Shown piece by piece: positions 53,933 through 64,000 of a DNA stretch of 64,000 nucleotides (positions within the stretch are counted from its first letter, which is position 1; every line of letters starts with the position of its first letter). Both the position numbers and the translations under genes were made by a program. Below the pieces are notes generated by a model. It was not told the origin of the DNA, did not search any database, and saw only the letters and a list, made by a program, of their open reading frames with translations. This stretch comes from Candidatus Helarchaeota archaeon (lineage in GTDB: Archaea > Asgardarchaeota > Lokiarchaeia > Helarchaeales > RDOG01): the NCBI GenBank assembly GCA_019058315.1, contig JAHPZH010000005.1, forward strand, positions 32,001-96,000, given 5' to 3'.

Positions 53933-54451
53933 TTGGAGAAAATAATTTATAAAATTCTTTTATTAGGTGATCCTGGAGTAGGTAAAACAGCTCTTATAAC
54001 TCAATATATTGATAATAGATTTATAACTGATTATAAAGCCACTCTTGGATTTGATATCTTTATCAAAAAAATTATAGGATCCAAAGCAGAATTTTCATTA
54101 GCAATCTGGGATCTCGCGGGACAAGAGAAATATACATCCTTAAAACAATCATATTATGAAGGTGCCCAGGGAATTATTATGGTATATGATGTAACAGACC
54201 GAGAAAGCTATAAAAATATAATACAGTGGTTAACAGAATTGCAAAAAGTAGTAAAAACAATTCCTATTATGTTAGTAGGAAATAAAATTGATTTAACTGA
54301 CGAAATTAAAATCAATACAGAGGATGGGCAACGACTTAAAACAAGAATTAAAGCAATTAATTTTTATGAGACTTCAGCAAAAACTGGACATAATGTTAAT
54401 ACAATTTTTGAAGAACTTGCAGATATTATTAATAAACATTCATCGATATAG
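53933..54451 (+). CDS. Rab-like small GTPase
   Basis: G1 GDPGVGKT, G2 YKATLG, G3 WDLAGQE, G4 NKID, G5 ETSAK; no C-terminal Cys prenylation motif. Confidence 0.95.
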   Translation: MEKIIYKILLLGDPGVGKTALITQYIDNRFITDYKATLGFDIFIKKIIGSKAEFSLAIWDLAGQEKYTSLKQSYYEGAQGIIMVYDVTDRESYKNIIQWLTELQKVVKTIPIMLVGNKIDLTDEIKINTEDGQRLKTRIKAINFYETSAKTGHNVNTIFEELADIINKHSSI

Positions 54452-54927: not shown

Positions 54928-57588
54928 ATGGCTTATATGAAAGATGAACTTCGAGAAGAAGACTCTAATATCGAGCAAAAATTAAAAGAAACTCAAATTA
55001 AGAGTGAGTTTGATTATCAAAATTTATTTAATGATATTCCTTGTGCTCTTTGGGTTATAAATTTTTCAGATATTAAATTGTACATTGATGAATTACGTAA
55101 TAAAGGAATTAAAGATTTTAGATCTTTTTTTAAAAATGACCCTGATTTTTATTCAACTTGTGTTTCTTTCATGAATATTATAGATGTCAACAGAGCAGCT
55201 ATACAATTATATCAAGCCAAAAACAAGGAGGAAGTTTTACAATATTTAAATGATACCTTTTGCAAAGAATCTTTAGATTTATTTTTAGAAGGAATTATTT
55301 CTATAATTGAGGGTAATTTACCGTTTGAAGGCGAGACTATAATTCAAACTATAAAGGGAAATAAAATTAATGTATTTTATAATTGGTTTATAGCTTCTGG
55401 TTTTGAAAAAAGCTTATCTAAAGTATTTGTAAGTCTCCATGATATTAGTGACCGGAAACAAATAGAATTATTATTACGTAAAGAACGAGATTTAGTCCAA
55501 AAATATCTAGATTTAATTGGAGTTCTTCTTATAACTTTAAATAAAAAAGGTGAAATAACCCTTATCAATCAAAAAGGATATCAGACTTTAGGATATGAAG
55601 AACAAGAGCTTATTGGTAAAAATTGGTTTGATAATTGTTTACCAGAACGAAATATAGAGGAAGTGAAATTAGTTTTTCAAAAATTAGTGGTAGGAGAAAT
55701 TGAACCAGTTGAATATTATGAAAATCCAATTATAACTAAAAGTGGTGAAGAAAGAATTATCGCTTGGCATAATACTGTTTTGACAGATGATATTGGAAAT
55801 ATTATTGGAATATTAAGTTCTGGAGAGGATATTACTGAGCGAATAAGAGGAGAAAAAAAATTAGCAAACCAAATGTATTTAATTGAGTCTATAAATACAA
55901 TATTAAAAGAAGCTTTAAGATTAGACAGTGAAATAAATGTTGCCAAAATGTGTCTAATTTTTGCTGAGGAGTTGACGAATAGCAAATTTGGCTTTATTGG
56001 TGAAATAAATGAAGATGGATATTTCGATACTATTGCTTTAAGTAATCCAGGATGGGAGGCGTGCACCATGGAAAAAACCGCTGCAATAAAATTACTTAAA
56101 AACATGGAGATTCGCGGCATTTGGGGGGAAGTTTTAAAAAGTGGGAAAACTTTAATAGCAGATGATCCCGAATCTCATCCTTCAAGTGTTGGTACTCCTG
56201 TTGGTCACCCAAGATTAACAAGTTTTTTAGGAGTTCCGTTATTTTACGCTGGAAATACATTTGGAATGATTGCTGTGGCTAATAAAGAAATAGAGTATAA
56301 TTCTGATGATCAGCAAGCCATAGAAACTCTTTCAATATCATTCATGGAAGCTTTGATGAATAAAAGAGCAGAAATAAAACTAAAAAATGCCAAAGAAACA
56401 CTTTTAGAAGCGCAAAAAATAGCTCATATAGGAAATTGGGATTGGAATATAGTTACTAATGAATTAAGTTGGTCTGATGAAATTTACCGCATATTCGGGC
56501 TTGCTCCACAAGAATTTGGAGCAACATATGAAGCATTTTTAAATAGTGTCCATCCCGACGATAGAGAATTTGTTACAAAATCCGTTAATGAAGCCATTTA
56601 TGATAAAAAACCTTACTCTATTGATCATCGTATTATTTTACCTGATGGGACACAACGAATAGTACATGAACTAGGTAAAGTTACATTTGATAAGGATGAT
56701 AAACCAATTAGAATGTTAGGAACTGTCCAAGATATCACCGAATTAAAGCTAATTGAAAATGAATTAAAGAAACATAGGGACAACCTTGAAGAATTAGTTT
56801 TAGAGCGTACAAGAGAATTGGAATTAGCAAATAAAAAACTTCAATTAGAAATTGAACAAAGAATAAAAGCTGAAAAAGATCTGGAACTATTCGTATATGC
56901 AGTTTCTCATGAAATAAGAACACCAATTTCAGTTTTAGTCCAATCTATAGATAATTTAGAGGTTTATGGAGAAAAATTATCAGAGAATTTGAAATCAAAA
57001 TTAATAAAAACGATGTCTAGAAATACATCATTATTATCCGAATTAATAGAGGATCTTTTATTAGCTTCAAGGATAGAAAGAACAGAAATAGAATTAAAGT
57101 GGGAAAATTACAAGCTATTCGATGTTTTAAAAGATGTATTAGACCAAATGGAACCTCGTTACAAATCAAGAGGAATAAAAATTGATACAGATGTGGATAT
57201 AAATATTCAATTATTTGGTGATATCAAACGTATTGCACAGATCTTTCGAATATTTATTGATAATGCTATAAAATATTCAAAAGAAAGATCACTGATAAAG
57301 ATTAAAGTATTTAATAAATATAAAGGAGAATTTAATCCGAAATCAATTGATGGTGTTTTAATTCAGTTCATTGATAATGGAATAGGTATTAAGAAGGAAG
57401 ATATCCCTAATTTGTTTAAAAAATATTTCAGATCTAAAGACGCAATGAATATTCCTGGTACAGGTTTAGGACTAACTATTGCAAAAACTCTAACTTATTA
57501 TCATCAAGGAGAAATATTTGTAGAAAGTGATTATGGTAAAGGAACGACTTTTTCCATTTTTCTTCCCAGATTAGAGGAACAACCATAA
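54928..57588 (+). CDS. Cytoplasmic PAS-PAS-GAF-PAS sensor histidine kinase
   Basis: PAS motifs (ELIGKNWF, WSDEIYRIFG..VHPDD), GAF (SFLGVPL..GMIAVAN), H-box VSHEIRTP, N-box DNAIKYS, DNGIGI, GTGLGL. Confidence 0.95.
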   Translation: MAYMKDELREEDSNIEQKLKETQIKSEFDYQNLFNDIPCALWVINFSDIKLYIDELRNKGIKDFRSFFKNDPDFYSTCVSFMNIIDVNRAAIQLYQAKNKEEVLQYLNDTFCKESLDLFLEGIISIIEGNLPFEGETIIQTIKGNKINVFYNWFIASGFEKSLSKVFVSLHDISDRKQIELLLRKERDLVQKYLDLIGVLLITLNKKGEITLINQKGYQTLGYEEQELIGKNWFDNCLPERNIEEVKLVFQKLVVGEIEPVEYYENPIITKSGEERIIAWHNTVLTDDIGNIIGILSSGEDITERIRGEKKLANQMYLIESINTILKEALRLDSEINVAKMCLIFAEELTNSKFGFIGEINEDGYFDTIALSNPGWEACTMEKTAAIKLLKNMEIRGIWGEVLKSGKTLIADDPESHPSSVGTPVGHPRLTSFLGVPLFYAGNTFGMIAVANKEIEYNSDDQQAIETLSISFMEALMNKRAEIKLKNAKETLLEAQKIAHIGNWDWNIVTNELSWSDEIYRIFGLAPQEFGATYEAFLNSVHPDDREFVTKSVNEAIYDKKPYSIDHRIILPDGTQRIVHELGKVTFDKDDKPIRMLGTVQDITELKLIENELKKHRDNLEELVLERTRELELANKKLQLEIEQRIKAEKDLELFVYAVSHEIRTPISVLVQSIDNLEVYGEKLSENLKSKLIKTMSRNTSLLSELIEDLLLASRIERTEIELKWENYKLFDVLKDVLDQMEPRYKSRGIKIDTDVDINIQLFGDIKRIAQIFRIFIDNAIKYSKERSLIKIKVFNKYKGEFNPKSIDGVLIQFIDNGIGIKKEDIPNLFKKYFRSKDAMNIPGTGLGLTIAKTLTYYHQGEIFVESDYGKGTTFSIFLPRLEEQP

Positions 57589-57648
57589 AAAAATATATAT
57601 AGAAAATGAAATGTAATATATCTGATGAAATAAAAAAGGAGTTTCAGC

Positions 57649-58536
57649 TTGAAGCCATTAATACTATGTGTAGATGACAATGAAGATATTTTATTAAATC
57701 TACGGTTAACATTAGAATTTAATGATTATGAAGTAATCACGGGAAAAAATGGCATAGAGGGTATAATCATATTATCCGAACTCGGGCGACTTCCAGACAT
57801 CATAATAAGTGATATAATGATGCCCGAAATGAATGGATATGATTTCTTTAAAAAAGTTTCTGAAAACTCGAAGTGGAATCGCATTCCATTTTTATTTTTA
57901 ACAGCTCGAACTTCTCCAACAGATGTTAGATTTGGCAAAATGTTAGGTGTTGATGATTATCTTACTAAACCCTTTAAAAAAGAAGATTTGATGGCCATAA
58001 TTGCTGGAAAACTTGCTAGAAGAAGAAAAACAGAAGAAGTTAGTGAAAAAGTTGAAGAAGTTCTCTCCTCTTTAAAAATTGATGAAAAACCTTCAATCTC
58101 TATTGAAGAAAAATTTTTAGTAAATTTATTATTAGTGTTTTGGGACGATAAAACGGGTCCTAGGGTTTTAAATTACTATCCAAAAGACATTAAATTACCT
58201 TTTTCTGTTGATAAAATAGGTGTTCAATTATATAATTCTATAGTTTCTATTTATGGACAAGGAAAAGTTGCTGAAGCTCAAGGTATATTATTAAATATAA
58301 AAAATATCGAGAGGGATGGTTTTATTTATTTTGATTCATATCCAGATAGTTCAATCAGAGGAGGTGAACAACAATATATGTTGGGGGTTATTGCTCCAAA
58401 GATTAATTATTTTGAATCTTTAAAAATTGGTGAACGCTTTAAACATATATCTTCACATATTAAATTAAAGGAAGATTGGGATTTTAAAAGTCATTGGGAA
58501 GAAATTGCAAATCTTTTATCAACTCCTTCACTGTAG
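57649..58536 (+). CDS. Response regulator with C-terminal uDENN/longin-like output domain
   Basis: Receiver VDD, ISDIMMP (phospho-Asp), FLTA, KP. C-term LLLVFWDDKTGPRVLNYYP...DSSIRGGEQQYMLGVI. Confidence 0.85.
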   Translation: MKPLILCVDDNEDILLNLRLTLEFNDYEVITGKNGIEGIIILSELGRLPDIIISDIMMPEMNGYDFFKKVSENSKWNRIPFLFLTARTSPTDVRFGKMLGVDDYLTKPFKKEDLMAIIAGKLARRRKTEEVSEKVEEVLSSLKIDEKPSISIEEKFLVNLLLVFWDDKTGPRVLNYYPKDIKLPFSVDKIGVQLYNSIVSIYGQGKVAEAQGILLNIKNIERDGFIYFDSYPDSSIRGGEQQYMLGVIAPKINYFESLKIGERFKHISSHIKLKEDWDFKSHWEEIANLLSTPSL

Positions 58537-58668
58537 ATAAAATAATCTTCATTTTTAAGATTTATAATTCTTAATCGAATGTTTCGAGTAATATAAATAC
58601 ATTTTAATAACCTTGTTTTTATTTTCTATAAGGTTGAACTATCTAAAGAAAAACAAAGGTAATAACAA

Positions 58669-58956
58669 ATGATGACAAAACAAGATTTTGAGATATATTT
58701 AGATTATATGATAGATTATTACGGAGTGGAAAGATCAGAATTACGAATATCGGCTTATAAGGTGCAAGGTGATGATAGCTATGAATTTTTCGAGAGTGCT
58801 AGAATAATTTCGATTTTAGAGTCAGGAATTATGGTTTGGAAATATGAGGATGAGGAAGAAGAGGAAAATGAGTCAGCATTCGTCTCATGGTCCGCCATAG
58901 ACGAAATTTCAATAATGCTAAGAGAAGTCGATGAAGATGAAGAATATGAAGATTAA
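58669..58956 (+). CDS. Small acidic hypothetical protein
   Basis: 95 aa, D/E-rich; AAGGT SD-like motif upstream. Confidence 0.65.
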   Translation: MMTKQDFEIYLDYMIDYYGVERSELRISAYKVQGDDSYEFFESARIISILESGIMVWKYEDEEEEENESAFVSWSAIDEISIMLREVDEDEEYED

Positions 58957-58961
58957 TTTTT

Positions 58962-59888
58962 TCAATCCTTTCTACTTAATAAATTTTCAGCTTTATAGTG
59001 TATAATTGTTGCTCCATGCTTATAATATTCTTTTAATGTTATCCAATTTTTTGAAGGATATTCAAACTCTTTAAGAGATCCAAGTATAGAAGAACCAAGC
59101 CAAGAAGAATATTGTTCAGCTTGAGTGATTTTAATAGGAAAGGTCGCTAAATTTTCTAATTCCTTTTGTAATCGTGCTTTCATACCCTTAATTTTTAACC
59201 CTGATACTATTATGTTCTTGGATAAATCTTCTCTAATAGTTGAATCTAGTTTCATTAGGGTATCAAAAATTTCTACGTCCAAAGGTTTTATCTTATCTTT
59301 ACCCGTCATTTTAGGTTTAAAATAGATTTCTGGAGCTAAAAATAATTCATCTAATTCGAGTGTAGTACCATCAGGTAATGTATAAGATTTTTTACTACTT
59401 TCCTTATCAGGATCTAGTGCTACAAAACAAAGTTTTTCGCGAATATCTCTTAAAATTTCCCTTTCTGCTGAAGTACGAAAATCATAACTCTTTTTTTTTA
59501 GGATCTTTTGTAGATAACTCGTTACATCTTCAATTCCTAAATCTATTTTTTTGATAAAATCAGTTAATGGGTAAGAATCCCAAACTGGTACGATATAAGT
59601 TGGATTTTTTAACCTAATAACTAACCCAGTAGTTTTTCCAACACACATTGCATCTGCCAAAGCTGCATTGACTAAAAGTATAGCCGGAATATTAAAATCT
59701 TCAAATAGAAAGCTACAAATCTTTTCCCTTTGTGACCTAGAAGTTAGTGGATGCTCGATAAGGATTAATCCGTGTTCAGATGGATCGATTTTTAAATCAT
59801 TATAGAAAATATAATGAACAAATTTCTTTATAGCATTAAAATCGACTATTTCTTCATTAATTATTGGAAATGTATTTCTTAAAACCAT
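58962..59888 (-). CDS. Divergent, N-terminally truncated actin-family protein
   Basis: FYNDLKIDPSEH, REKI..FLFEDFNIPA, TSAEREILRDIREKLCFVALD, SYTLPDG, YSSWLGSSILGSL, WITLKEY..HGATIIHYK all match actin from about residue 65 onward. Confidence 0.92.
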   Translation of the reverse strand: MVLRNTFPIINEEIVDFNAIKKFVHYIFYNDLKIDPSEHGLILIEHPLTSRSQREKICSFLFEDFNIPAILLVNAALADAMCVGKTTGLVIRLKNPTYIVPVWDSYPLTDFIKKIDLGIEDVTSYLQKILKKKSYDFRTSAEREILRDIREKLCFVALDPDKESSKKSYTLPDGTTLELDELFLAPEIYFKPKMTGKDKIKPLDVEIFDTLMKLDSTIREDLSKNIIVSGLKIKGMKARLQKELENLATFPIKITQAEQYSSWLGSSILGSLKEFEYPSKNWITLKEYYKHGATIIHYKAENLLSRKD

Positions 59889-59894
59889 AAGATT

Positions 59895-60914
59895 TCACCT
59901 CAAAAATTTTTGTAACAACTCTTTCATACTCTTCGGAAGTTGTCCATTAGATTCTAAATCTAAAATAAAATCTTCTACAAGATCTACTTGGCTTAGTGCT
60001 ATGGCAACAATGAGGTCTGGAATGTCTGGAGTATTTTCCAGCATAAAATGTTCTCCTTGCGTGATATTTGCAATTTCTTTAAAGATTTTTTCAGTTTTAC
60101 TATCTTTTACAATTTGTATAGTGTAAACTTTAACCTCATTAGAAGCTAACTTTTTTGATTCTTCTCTCCAATTCAATTTCTTTGGACATTGGGAAGGATC
60201 GTGTGGGGGAGCGTCCGCGATTAATATTGCGATCTTTTTAACATTTACCCATTGAAAATCTTGAAGAGAGCTTAATGCATCCTCAACCGCCTCTGGAATA
60301 TCTCCCCCACCATCTGCAGTCCATTCCTTTATAAAACTTGTTAGTTCTGAATAATATTGGGATTCTGTAAACGGGTAACATTTTAGTAAATAAGAACTTT
60401 CTTCGTCACAATGATCACGATAGGTTAAGGCACCAATTCGAACTCCTGGAATTTTTTCTGATAGAAAGTAAAGCATTCTAGCAATTTCCTTTTTTATGGC
60501 CCCAAGAGCAGATCCCATAGAACCTGTAGAATCAGCCACTACAACTAAGTCAAGCATTCCTAAAGATTCAATCTTTTCTTTTATCATTCTACACATATCT
60601 TTGTCATTTAAAGATTCCATAAAAGCTAAAGCTCGTTGATAAGCCTTGTAAGCATAACCCATCTTTTTTATTGATTCAAATTCTCTAGCAGCCTGTAACA
60701 TTGTTTTTCCGGCTTTTTCAGGTTCTCCTTGTTTATCTTGTAATGATGCTATCGAAACTAGAGTAATTACGGCTTGTAGCTTTAGATTTCGATTAATAAA
60801 TGTTTCACGTAATTTCATATAATTATTAATAGCTTTTTTCCAAGCTTTATTTTCCATTTTCAGGCAAATTTTATCCGAAATCGCTTTCAATTCATACTCA
60901 ATTTCACTTAACAT
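59895..60914 (-). CDS. TPR/SNAP-like helices + VWA domain protein (paralog B)
   Basis: LDLVVVADSTGSM MIDAS, YRDH, GGGDIPEAV, ILIADAPPH. ATG 60914 aligns with the paralog start. Confidence 0.88.
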   Translation of the reverse strand: MLSEIEYELKAISDKICLKMENKAWKKAINNYMKLRETFINRNLKLQAVITLVSIASLQDKQGEPEKAGKTMLQAAREFESIKKMGYAYKAYQRALAFMESLNDKDMCRMIKEKIESLGMLDLVVVADSTGSMGSALGAIKKEIARMLYFLSEKIPGVRIGALTYRDHCDEESSYLLKCYPFTESQYYSELTSFIKEWTADGGGDIPEAVEDALSSLQDFQWVNVKKIAILIADAPPHDPSQCPKKLNWREESKKLASNEVKVYTIQIVKDSKTEKIFKEIANITQGEHFMLENTPDIPDLIVAIALSQVDLVEDFILDLESNGQLPKSMKELLQKFLR

Positions 60915-60936
60915 TCCATTATCACAATCCAAGGAA

Positions 60937-61965
60937 TCATATTAATTCTTTAAGGAGCTCCCTTTTACTTTCTGTGAGTTTTCCTTCAGATTCTATATCA
61001 ATAATAAAATCTTCTGCTAAATCAAATTGATGTAATGCTATTGCTACGATTAGATCTGGTAAATCAGCTGTGTCGGATAAAAGAAAAGATTTTGATTCTG
61101 TTATCCTAGCAATTTCTTTGAAACTTTCTATAGTTCTCACATCATTACCACAAATCACAGAATAAACTTTTATTTCATCATTTGCTAATTTTGCAGAAAT
61201 TTTTTTCCAGTCTAATTTATTAGGACATTTTTCAGGGGGGTGTGGGGGTTCATCAGCTATTAATATTGATATTTTTTTAACAGATTCCCATTCGTAACCT
61301 TTTTGAAGGTAGTCTAATGCGTCTGCAACTGCCTCACCACCATCTCCACCCCCACCATCAGGCACCCAGCTATCTACAAAAGAAACCAATTTGGCTATTT
61401 CAGAAGATACTTGTTCAATGAATGGTTGAGCTTTAATCAGATAAGAAGTATTTTCGTTACAGTGGTCTCGGTAAGTTAAAGCACCTATACGAATGCCTGG
61501 GATTTTATCTGACATCTTATATAGCATTTTCGCTATTTCTTTTCTAATAGAATCAAGACCACTTCCCATCGATCCTGTAGAGTCGATCACAATTACTAAA
61601 TCTAGCATTCCGAGAGATTCTATTTTCTGCTGAATATTTTTTACTTTACCAATTTGATCACATGATATCATAAGGTCTAGAGCTCTTTGATATGCCTTGA
61701 ATGCATAACCCATTTTTCTATGTTCTTCGAATTCATTAGCAGCACTTAACATAATATTTCCAGCTTTTTCGACCTGACCAATCGTTTCTAACAACGAAGC
61801 AATACTCACAAGCGTTAAAGTGGCTTGAGAGTTTAATTTAGCTTCAAGAAAATGCTCACGTATTCTCTCATAGTCTTTAATTGCAACGATCCAAGCTTTA
61901 TTGCACATATTAAAATGAATTTCTTCTGATAATGTATTCATTTCATATTCTATTTCTTTTAGCAT
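60937..61965 (-). CDS. TPR/SNAP-like helices + VWA domain protein (paralog A)
   Basis: LDLVIVIDSTGSM, YRDH, GGGGDGGEAV, ILIADEPPH. Confidence 0.88.
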   Translation of the reverse strand: MLKEIEYEMNTLSEEIHFNMCNKAWIVAIKDYERIREHFLEAKLNSQATLTLVSIASLLETIGQVEKAGNIMLSAANEFEEHRKMGYAFKAYQRALDLMISCDQIGKVKNIQQKIESLGMLDLVIVIDSTGSMGSGLDSIRKEIAKMLYKMSDKIPGIRIGALTYRDHCNENTSYLIKAQPFIEQVSSEIAKLVSFVDSWVPDGGGGDGGEAVADALDYLQKGYEWESVKKISILIADEPPHPPEKCPNKLDWKKISAKLANDEIKVYSVICGNDVRTIESFKEIARITESKSFLLSDTADLPDLIVAIALHQFDLAEDFIIDIESEGKLTESKRELLKELI

Positions 61966-61981
61966 TTTGAATTACAGACCT

Positions 61982-64000
61982 TTACTCTATTTGGAGTATA
62001 TTTACTGAAGAGTTTGCTCTTAAATCTACATTATACATTGGATAACCCACCGTCTCCTTTACAATTATTTCTCCCGGTTTTGTTGCAGTCATATTATAAG
62101 TTAAGGTTATTGATCCATCCAATTCATTTAGATAAAGATTCAATTTGTCACTAGTTAATTTATATGATGTGATTTGATATTCTTCCACCAGTTTCTTTAA
62201 TGATTGTTCCACAACTAAAAAACCAGCGGGGATAGGTTCCTCTATTGCAAACATTCCCTGTTTTTCGGTTGTTGTTATATTAAGTTTAACACTTATGGAA
62301 TCATTCTGTGCAACTTTATTTGAACTGAAATCTCTTGTTATTGTTAACATTTTGGGTTTTAGAAGATATTCTTTAGGATACCATGCTTCTATTGTTAAAT
62401 CGTACACTAATAAGCCCTCACCATTCTTTTCTAATATCAATTTATTTTCAGAATTTAGATTATCTAACGGAATATTTCTCATATCATAAACAATATGTTC
62501 TAAAGTGTCTTCATTTACTTCGAATTCTCCTATTACCTGTTTATTAAAAATTGCCTGTGTTAGAAAATTCGTTTTTTCGCTTCTTGCGCAATTAGAAAGA
62601 CAAAGAATAGCGGCTATAGTATCTGATGTTGTACTCCATCCACCACCTTTAGCGCGATTAGCCATAATATAATTTAAGACCCTTTGAACATTTACTGGAT
62701 CTCCTCCTGCAATATTTAAAGCTAGTGCAGCATAAGCTGTAGATTCAACTTTTCCAGCTAGTGATGAACCAACGTCCCAATAGACGAAATCGCCTTCATT
62801 ATGAGCTGATGTATTTAATTTTTCTATAAGGAGGTTCAATTCCTTATTGTATTTATTTGACCCTTCTTTAATGATGTCGATTATTAAATAGGCTAATAGG
62901 TTTGGGTCGTTCGTTCTCTTTGAGGAGAGGATAGCGTTTGATATAATATTTTCTAAAGCTTTGTCAATAATTTCTTGATTTACGTTATATCCAGCTTTTT
63001 TAGCCTCGAGTAATGCTTGTATAACATACGCTGTACAGAAGTCTTTCCCTCGTCTATTTGATTCCCAAGTCCCTTGAGAAGTTTGTATTTTCTTTAATTC
63101 TTCTATTGCAGCATTAATTAGTTTTTTTTCTATAAAAAATCCCGAGTTAATTGTATAAGCCAAACCAAACAATACATAGGCTGTAGTGAAAGGCTCTGAT
63201 TGCTCATTTCCCCAATATCCCCAACCACCACGGTCATTTCGAAGACTTATTAATTGTTGAATACCCTTAGTTGTCATTTCTTCAAATTGTTCTTGGAATT
63301 TGTTAGTAAGCATATTATTTTCTTTTAGCAGATTGTAAACTAGAACGTTAGGTAAAAATTTCGACATAGTTTGTTCTACACAACCATGAGGATATCCTAA
63401 TATCGATTCTAATCCATCCATGCAACCCATTTGATAACCAGGTATCAATGAAAGGCGTGCTTTATAAAAAATTGCGTCTCTTGGTATAGTTGGAGATATA
63501 TTAATAATTTCATCTTCCAAAATAAGTCCCGTATATCTGAAAATATGAGGTTCTCCTTTAGGATTTATTTTTATTTTTTTTCTTAAGACATCAATATGCT
63601 TCGGTGTTTTAGCTTCGATCCAAAATGTCGCCTCACCTGGATTAATTGCTTTCAATTTGAAATCGAGACGTTTCATCCCATTTGCAGGAACGAGAATATT
63701 CCCTTTCGGTATGTCAACTTTTAATTTATATTTATCAGCATTTAAATTAACGTTACATTCTAAGTTTTCTTTTGTTAGATTTGTCAAAATTATTCCAAGT
63801 TGAATATTATCTCCATGAGTTAAAACTGGTGGGATATCAAGTTTTGCAAAAAAATCTTGTTTAACTGTAATTCTATGAGTTCCCATACCTATCTCACAAT
63901 CTTTTGTACTTGCAAACACTGTCAACTCATGACTTGTTATCTGATCTGGTAGCTCTGTTTCTAGCATAGATTGACCATCTGATTCTAGGAATGGAATCCA
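61982..64000 (-). CDS. Alpha-2-macroglobulin / thioester-containing protein (5'-partial)
   Basis: Frame open to the window edge (WIPFLESDGQSMLETELPDQIT). FFAKLDIPP.L..GD, YPHGCVEQTMS thioester (63371-63385), GGWGYW, VESTAYAALA, GGWSTTSDT, IEEPIPAGF, YPMYN. Confidence 0.93.
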   Translation of the reverse strand, partial: WIPFLESDGQSMLETELPDQITSHELTVFASTKDCEIGMGTHRITVKQDFFAKLDIPPVLTHGDNIQLGIILTNLTKENLECNVNLNADKYKLKVDIPKGNILVPANGMKRLDFKLKAINPGEATFWIEAKTPKHIDVLRKKIKINPKGEPHIFRYTGLILEDEIINISPTIPRDAIFYKARLSLIPGYQMGCMDGLESILGYPHGCVEQTMSKFLPNVLVYNLLKENNMLTNKFQEQFEEMTTKGIQQLISLRNDRGGWGYWGNEQSEPFTTAYVLFGLAYTINSGFFIEKKLINAAIEELKKIQTSQGTWESNRRGKDFCTAYVIQALLEAKKAGYNVNQEIIDKALENIISNAILSSKRTNDPNLLAYLIIDIIKEGSNKYNKELNLLIEKLNTSAHNEGDFVYWDVGSSLAGKVESTAYAALALNIAGGDPVNVQRVLNYIMANRAKGGGWSTTSDTIAAILCLSNCARSEKTNFLTQAIFNKQVIGEFEVNEDTLEHIVYDMRNIPLDNLNSENKLILEKNGEGLLVYDLTIEAWYPKEYLLKPKMLTITRDFSSNKVAQNDSISVKLNITTTEKQGMFAIEEPIPAGFLVVEQSLKKLVEEYQITSYKLTSDKLNLYLNELDGSITLTYNMTATKPGEIIVKETVGYPMYNVDLRANSSVNILQIE

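Follow-up and report, generated by a model that had tools for sequence, protein, structure and literature searches.

Thioester macroglobulins are the family behind animal A2M and complement. Described members, among them bacterial ECAM/YfhM and SaA2M, human A2M and complement C3, carry MG2, bait, A2M, TED and MG10 domains and a CxEQ thioester motif, and the site at which the A2M bait is inserted is the one at which C3 carries its anaphylatoxin domain. Actin (PF00022) is the signature cytoskeletal protein common to Asgard archaea and eukaryotes. The two families meet in one operon within a 64,000-nucleotide stretch of DNA from a Candidatus Helarchaeota archaeon (GenBank assembly GCA_019058315.1, contig JAHPZH010000005.1, positions 32,001 to 96,000 of the forward strand; hereafter the window, with positions counted from its first nucleotide), where an actin gene that lacks its N terminus follows an A2M-family gene and two genes for VWA proteins.

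Actin folds are known to serve as structural or filament-end modules, not as polymerizing ATPases, in Arp7/Arp9 of SWI/SNF and in Arp10/Arp11 of the dynactin pointed end; unlike the actin described here, these are single-chain, complete folds in eukaryotic complexes, and none is split or joined to a macroglobulin. Actin cut by subtilisin or by ECP32/protealysin in or after subdomain 2 stays together as a non-covalent complex, and the 33-kDa tryptic core of actin begins near residue 69. In integrated-decoy or tripwire sensors, such as plant nucleotide-binding leucine-rich repeat receptors with integrated domains (NLR-ID; RRS1-WRKY, RGA5-HMA) and mammalian NLRP1 and CARD8, a copy of the target is built into the sensor, and an attack on it fires the sensor.

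Here we report that the actin copy of this locus is cut in two, with one piece, the first sixth, lying in the trigger loop of the macroglobulin and the other, the remaining five-sixths, encoded as a separate, apparently ATP-dead subunit under purifying selection. That the two complementary pieces form a naturally split pseudo-actin, in a split-and-complement architecture, we regard as very probable. The best explanation of the whole, to which we assign a probability of roughly 0.55, is that this split pseudo-actin serves the A2M as a decoy bait; the decoy function taken by itself is more tentative, at slightly worse than even odds. In a full-text literature search, neither A2M-actin fusions of Asgard archaea nor truncated lokiactins nor natural split actins were found described, and the same held for A2Ms with a folded host-protein copy as bait. 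The CAGE-complex preprint, which we considered, is unrelated to the A2M-actin system. The parts are of known kinds, an actin and an A2M bait-and-trap; taken together they would make a system of a new type, provided that the decoy function holds.

The truncated actin and its complement in the A2M bait

The truncated actin gene (P0001) occupies positions 58962..59888 on the minus strand, with 308 codons and no internal stop, and its product covers actin residues 64-375, the remainder of subdomain 1 together with subdomains 3 and 4, with a degenerate nucleotide site. Homology to actin is clear: residues 9-299 match Pfam Actin PF00022 with 186.9 bits (cut-off 27; E 6e-55) over positions 65-408 of the 410-position profile, the solved actins of the PDB align to the open reading frame (ORF) from about their residue 66 on (E 1.5e-61), and residues 60-367 of the lokiactin from the same genome align with ORF residues 2-297 at 43% identity (BLASTP, E 4e-84). 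Over actin residues 64-375 the identity of the truncated actin to that lokiactin is 43-46%. The actin fold is also predicted by AlphaFold2 (AF2) from the ORF alone, with a mean predicted local distance difference test score (pLDDT) of 86.9 and a predicted template modelling score of 0.84, and the best matches of the model in the PDB are actins (template modelling score 0.88-0.89, root-mean-square deviation about 2.1 Å). The protein nevertheless does not amount to a one-polypeptide actin with four subdomains, a phosphate-1 loop and a DNase I-binding loop (D-loop), for it begins at actin residue 64 and lacks three of the five strands that make up the sheet of subdomain 1. A preliminary description had recognized an actin homologue without its N-terminal ~64 residues, and the Pfam, PDB and lokiactin alignments agree with it.

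The preliminary description was likewise right about the intact 308-codon frame and about the start of the gene. The minus strand 5' of the ORF reads GAGGTGA-AATCTT-ATG, with a Shine-Dalgarno-like GAGGTGA motif (59895..59901, minus strand, read from the sequence) separated from the ATG by a 6-nucleotide spacer. Within this motif lies the TGA stop of the preceding VWA gene (59895-59897), two codons (9 nucleotides) 5' of the actin ATG and in the same frame, which is open over 310 amino acids. Because of this in-frame TGA, no N-terminal extension of the truncated actin is possible. Read-through from the VWA gene into the actin gene, which would fuse both proteins, was considered and rejected, as the frame relation is not kept in three of four other loci; the in-frame arrangement of VWA stop and actin ATG is probably coincidental.

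A genome-wide scan with the Pfam actin model gave four matches: a full-length lokiactin (C5:296580-297686, 448 bits), the truncated ORF, a 575-amino-acid actin-related ORF, and a short segment on the minus strand at C2:96229-96405. The last of these covers actin profile positions 5-56 and lies about 230 bases past the end of the window, inside an ORF of 1650 amino acids that encodes an A2M-family thioester protein (P0124). This gene heads the operon on the minus strand; its C-terminal 672 codons fall in the window (61982..64000), and it extends to window-equivalent position 66934 (L006:5983-10935). Residues 1-59 of the lokiactin align with A2M residues 845-903 (L006:8227-8403, window-equivalent 64226-64402, minus strand) at 68% identity (BLASTP, E 2e-24), so that lokiactin residues 1-59 in the A2M and 60-367 in the truncated ORF abut with no gap and no overlap, the break corresponding to actin G63|I64. 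The same breakpoint is found in six A2Ms and six truncated actins, and the truncated actins all begin MVL[KR]. Actin residues ~6-63, comprising strands beta1-beta3 of subdomain 1, the whole of subdomain 2 and the D-loop, are thus encoded in the A2M gene. The natural break at 63|64 falls in the same protease-sensitive stretch at which actin is nicked by proteases; unlike that nick, it is genetic, conserved and under selection, and its small piece is embedded in an A2M. From lokiactin and eukaryotic actin, too, the pseudo-actin is set apart by its division into two polypeptides at this point.

The fragment sits in the A2M bait region, because it is flanked by the Pfam domains A2M_BRD and A2M (Actin 861-918, between A2M_BRD 511-628 and A2M 993-1081, in P0121 numbering). 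The preliminary description had suggested a search of the A2M N terminus for an actin N-terminal fragment; the fragment is present, in the bait and not at the N terminus of the A2M. Around it the bait insert spans some 370 residues between the landmarks LVDASVLQL and FNFPETSLW, and contains a helical domain, the actin fragment and, after the fragment, a variable Gly/Ser/Pro-rich linker. The helical domain of ~190 residues (~P0124 640-830, approximately L006:8450-9020, minus strand) is modelled by AF2 with pLDDT 80-96; no Pfam family matches it, and in a broad structural search all matches were to generic helical repeats, with Z no higher than 8.6, below the meaningful level for helical bundles. 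Its position is that at which C3 carries the anaphylatoxin domain. In the linker, A2M residues 932-942 (KSSGPSVVHRC; L006:8110-8142, window-equivalent ~64109-64141, minus strand, past the window end) copy the C-terminal tail of lokiactin (KEIGPSVIHRC), with 8 matches in 11 positions (E 0.026). An actin-tail-like GP[SE][VI]VHR motif occurs in the linker of three of the six A2Ms and is absent or unclear in the other three.

In its chassis the protein resembles the described thioester A2Ms and thioester-containing proteins. Pfam matches above cut-off comprise MG2, A2M_BRD, A2M, TED (TED_complement) and bMG10 besides Actin, MG2, TED and MG10 domains are present in all six A2Ms, the thioester motif GC[VT]EQ is intact in each of them (GCVEQ in this genome), and the insert lies at the A2M bait site. 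This is the only TED-containing protein of the genome, and its trap, judged from these motifs, looks functional. Unlike those proteins, it has a ~370-residue bait made up of a helical domain of no recognized family, a piece of the organism's own actin and a variable linker.

Occurrence, selection and conserved surfaces

Searching the bait region against 5.8 billion (5.8e9) proteins recovered six insert-bearing A2Ms, each with a precomputed Pfam actin match and assigned by source names to Lokiarchaeia and Freyarchaeota. They are mutually 59-64% identical over the part that follows the bait. The next-closest A2M (P0129) is 30% identical, without the insert and without VWA or actin neighbours, and no intermediate form between it and the six was found in this search. 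The fragment is found in each of the six A2Ms of the clade and in no other A2M. In all five loci with genomic context the gene order is A2M, VWA, truncated actin (306-311 amino acids), and a truncated actin without the A2M was never seen in such loci. The family is rare: among 400 Asgard species genomes the truncated actin occurs in two, this one and one from another class (G118), and the matches listed for the other matching genomes are full-length lokiactins at 43-48% identity. When a profile of the six sequences was searched against 1.84 billion cluster representatives, a single full-length representative (560 bits) and two partial ones came up, after which the score falls to 360 bits, among multi-copy actins.

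The preliminary description had also held the truncation to be genuine, and this is borne out by the comparison. Six independent assemblies (NCBI, JGI and Logan) share the MVL[KR] start and an intact frame, and for the four usable pairs of orthologues, most pairs being saturated (proportion of synonymous differences, pS, >0.75), Nei-Gojobori ratios of nonsynonymous to synonymous substitution (dN/dS) are 0.10, 0.11, 0.17 and 0.27. The truncated actin is under purifying selection. In the tree, the truncated actins form one clade (Shimodaira-Hasegawa-like approximate likelihood ratio test 99) on a long stem (0.62), with end branches of 0.07-0.63 against 0-0.17 for lokiactins, several times faster evolution. 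The outgroup was the 575-amino-acid actin-related ORF, itself on a very long branch, and the truncated clade joins it, a placement for which possible long-branch attraction was flagged; neither a root position nor a donor lineage among lokiactins was recovered from this tree. The long stem and the loss of catalytic motifs described below are what one might expect of a decaying pseudogene, or of an assembly or frameshift artefact of a full-length actin. Yet this reading has next to no probability given the shared start and intact frame, the low dN/dS, the in-frame stop two codons 5' of the ATG with the VWA gene filling the upstream DNA, and the separate full-length lokiactin in the genome; misassembly in particular is set aside because the six independent assemblies agree.

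Motifs were called from an alignment of the ORF with the 375-amino-acid eukaryotic actin, the lokiactin of the same genome and the orthologues, and conservation was measured for the six truncated-actin orthologues against the consensus and the invariant positions of 17 lokiactins. In the ORF the phosphate-2 motif DSGDG reads RL-KN, the adenosine motif SGGTT reads SG-LKI, Q137 is replaced by A and H161 by Y, all as the preliminary description had it. Phosphate-2, the adenosine motif, Q137, H161 and the sensor-loop residue H73, which is N or D across the orthologues, are lost in all six, and the lokiactin-invariant residue is kept at only 3 of 19 positions of the nucleotide site; the motif set of a nucleotide-binding actin (phosphate-2 DxGxG, adenosine GG[ST], Q137, H161 and K/R336) is not found. 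In the A2M fragments the phosphate-1 motif DNGTG has become ELG[SAT]x (ELGSN in this genome), and conservation in the first strand together with the phosphate-1 loop is down to 2-7 of 13 positions. The suggestion of the preliminary description that the pseudo-actin is a non-ATPase is supported by this pattern of motif loss, in which it differs from lokiactin and eukaryotic actin, as it does in its faster evolution, its rarity and its diverged barbed-end cleft.

The surfaces have fared differently. Subdomain 2 (residues 33-63) keeps 24-29 of 33 positions (73-88% identity) in all six A2M fragments, and in the truncated actins 13 of 16 positions survive in the contact segments of subdomain 4 (200-208 and 241-247), in contrast to 3 of 20 in the barbed-end hydrophobic cleft. 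These last two counts bear indirectly on whether the module would polymerize into filaments. By subdomain, identity to the lokiactin consensus is 61% in subdomain 4, 48% in subdomain 1 and 41% in subdomain 3, and the share of lokiactin-invariant positions kept follows the same order (58%, 40% and 30%). On this differential conservation, the assembled module would keep its pointed-end face, formed by the D-loop and subdomain 4, close to lokiactin; drift has affected the ATP cleft and the barbed face. The surface segments that the preliminary description called actin-like are so in subdomain 4, and not in the barbed-end cleft.

These results bear on the reading that the preliminary description had preferred, a free-standing actin mimic that works without the A2M fragment, either as a filament cap or as a decoy for profilin, gelsolin or a toxin. 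The ORF alone is modelled confidently, and actin has a classical protease-resistant core, stable and of about the same extent. Set against this are the exact complementarity of the breakpoint to the A2M fragment, the absence of the ORF from any locus with context that lacks the A2M, the missing three strands of the subdomain-1 sheet, and the divergence of the cleft that binds profilin, gelsolin and WH2. We consider such a mimic very unlikely. It is outweighed by the alternative offered in the same description, that a partner from the operon provides the missing strands in trans, which fits better, the A2M fragment being exactly complementary. A profilin or gelsolin decoy was rejected as unlikely, the target-binding cleft having kept only those 3 of 20 positions.

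The same surfaces would suit a module that docks on filaments. The pointed-end face would add to the barbed end of a lokiactin filament and the degenerate barbed face would block further growth, so that the module would cap filaments, station the A2M on the cytoskeleton, or both, and the actin piece would be an address and not a bait. Preservation of subdomain 2 and subdomain 4 together with loss of the barbed-end cleft and the ATP site is the pattern that, from the established geometry of F-actin, one would expect of a terminal, non-extendable subunit. If it were so, the module would be a new kind of actin regulator. This reading leaves the placement of the fragment unexplained, in the bait of a protein whose thioester is intact. 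Fusion at any site would serve an address; capping factors of such a build are not known, and the conserved subdomain 4 segments also belong to the core structure, so that their conservation may be structural. We regard docking or capping as unlikely, yet as the chief rival of the decoy explanation and as deserving more weight than a free-standing mimic.

Predicted docking and the decoy reading

Co-folding of the ORF with an 81-residue A2M fragment, with alignments for both chains, gave an interface score (ipSAE) of 0.90 in three runs against 0.61 for the best control, an unrelated protein, although a split actin may pass by its likeness to solved actins; the pass mark used is reached by 58 of 80 solved complexes and by 2 of 110 mismatched pairs. 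The runs agreed in at least 85% of contacts, with a pLDDT of 68-70 for the partner. In the model, beta1 of the fragment (residues 12-16) pairs with a segment of the ORF (residues 39-44) equivalent to strand 103-107 of actin, the geometry expected of a subdomain-1 sheet made whole from both chains. The D-loop (fragment residues 44-57) lies outside the confidently touching residues, which is no proof of a free loop. The two pieces are therefore compatible in the model, the binding itself being predicted. When an unrelated protein takes the place of the ORF, the pLDDT of the fragment drops to 27, and when the bait region is modelled alone, the fragment and the linker after it are at about 25 beside the confident helical domain. 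These values fit a fragment that folds on binding the ORF, in which case the bait of this A2M, unlike that of other thioester A2Ms, would need a second protein to fold.

A bait that is disordered on its own invites another interpretation, in which the truncated actin acts as a safety catch or regulatory subunit that shields the bait from the cell's own proteases or holds the A2M spring-loaded. Activation would follow its release by a signal, by competition from actin-binding factors or by damage, and the likeness to actin would be historical and not mimicry. An unprotected, disordered bait of 130 residues would indeed be vulnerable in the cytoplasm, and the strict co-occurrence of both genes in five of five loci is in keeping with such a role. 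Shielding, however, does not require subdomain 2 to stay at 73-88% identity while the rest drifts to 41-48%, and the position of the D-loop outside the confident contacts gives no hint that the partner covers it. We hold a safety catch to be improbable, somewhat more so than filament docking.

In the explanation that we prefer, the split pseudo-actin as decoy bait, the ORF would supply the C-terminal piece (actin residues 64-375) of a nucleotide-free pseudo-actin. The 308-residue protein would dock post-translationally on the otherwise disordered A2M segment and complete its subdomain-1 sheet, leaving an actin-shaped module with a lokiactin-like pointed-end face on the A2M. This module would act as a structural decoy of host actin, offering an authentic, solvent-exposed D-loop as scissile bait, and the variable Gly/Ser/Pro linker behind the fragment may serve as bait likewise. 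An actin-attacking protease that cuts the bait would spring the thioester trap of the A2M, and the VWA protein or proteins may be the adaptor for the activated A2M. The decoy reading is suggested because the fragment lies at the protease-sensitive trigger site, the thioester is intact, and the D-loop is the part closest to real actin; the D-loop is the classic protease-sensitive site of actin. As in integrated-decoy sensors, the embedded copy appears to have been kept near its target (68% identity to the organism's own lokiactin; 24-29 of 33 positions in subdomain 2) while the rest drifts. In contrast to those sensors, the chassis would be a thioester macroglobulin instead of an NLR, and the decoy would come from two polypeptides.

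Several points weigh against this explanation. The co-fold pass could be explained by memory of the actin fold, of which hundreds of structures have been solved, and an unrelated control reached 0.61. The neighbourhood yielded no candidate protease, nor was a candidate effector identified; the bait might be cut in the variable Gly/Ser/Pro-rich linker that follows the fragment, and not in the D-loop. A module that docks on the barbed ends of filaments would be just as likely to conserve subdomains 2 and 4. The protease-resistant actin core without its ~68 N-terminal residues is stable, and the ORF product might for that reason also exist alone. The putative cytoplasmic location is drawn from a simple hydropathy scan, in which no hydrophobic N terminus appeared. 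Host-specific co-variation gave no signal either way: the lokiactin of G118 has a canonical D-loop, and the A2M copy in that genome differs at non-matching positions.

Were the decoy reading true, the lokiactin cytoskeleton would be under protease attack in nature. A wider proposal, which we hold to be less likely than not, is that Asgard archaea of at least two classes possess an intracellular complement-like surveillance module, made of a thioester protein, a factor-B-like VWA protein and a two-polypeptide actin decoy in the bait, that senses lokiactin-attacking proteases of viruses, predators or competitors and traps them covalently. This would be the first integrated-decoy sensor in archaea and the first natural split actin, and it would argue that in biological conflicts the actin cytoskeleton of Asgard archaea is among the targets. 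With three or four proteins that can be co-expressed, the system is testable.

The operon and its neighbours

Between the A2M gene and the truncated actin gene lie two tandem VWA paralogues on the minus strand, both with N-terminal helices resembling tetratricopeptide repeats and a VWA domain whose metal-ion-dependent adhesion site reads DSTGS. VWA protein 1 (342 amino acids) is encoded at 60937..61965 (Pfam VWA, E 7.9e-11), and VWA protein 2 (345 amino acids) at 59895..60932 (Pfam VWA, E 9.3e-12). The tandem arrangement (59895-61965) is particular to this genome, in which VWA protein 1 is the extra copy; the orthologous loci have a single VWA protein of 338-340 amino acids. A VWA neighbour of a thioester protein recalls the pairings of C3b with factor B and of iC3b with the integrin I-domain.

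By a simple hydropathy test, no hydrophobic N terminus was detected in the A2M, the VWA proteins or the truncated actin, the maximum 12-residue hydropathy within the first 50 residues being at most 1.02, nor in five A2M orthologues (at most 0.88). By the same test, the A2M lacks the signal peptide or lipobox of a secreted or periplasmic protein, in which it would differ from the described thioester A2Ms, and the A2M system is probably cytoplasmic.

Just upstream of the operon and on the opposite strand are genes for a Rab/Ras-like small GTPase (172 amino acids, 53933-54451) and a response regulator (57649-58536) whose C-terminal extension is of a non-DNA-binding kind. The orthologous locus L027 (JGI 3300033141) has downstream neighbours in common with window positions 54928-58956, namely an ORF of 96 amino acids, a PAS histidine kinase and a response regulator of 298 amino acids. 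Synteny is thus kept across a deep divergence, the truncated actin of L027 reaching no more than 53% identity.

The 575-amino-acid actin-related ORF (L003/L004; G000:C5:148334-149449, minus strand) aligns to the actin profile over two separate stretches (positions 5-204 and 256-407), a pattern suggestive of an ARP-like protein with a large insertion.

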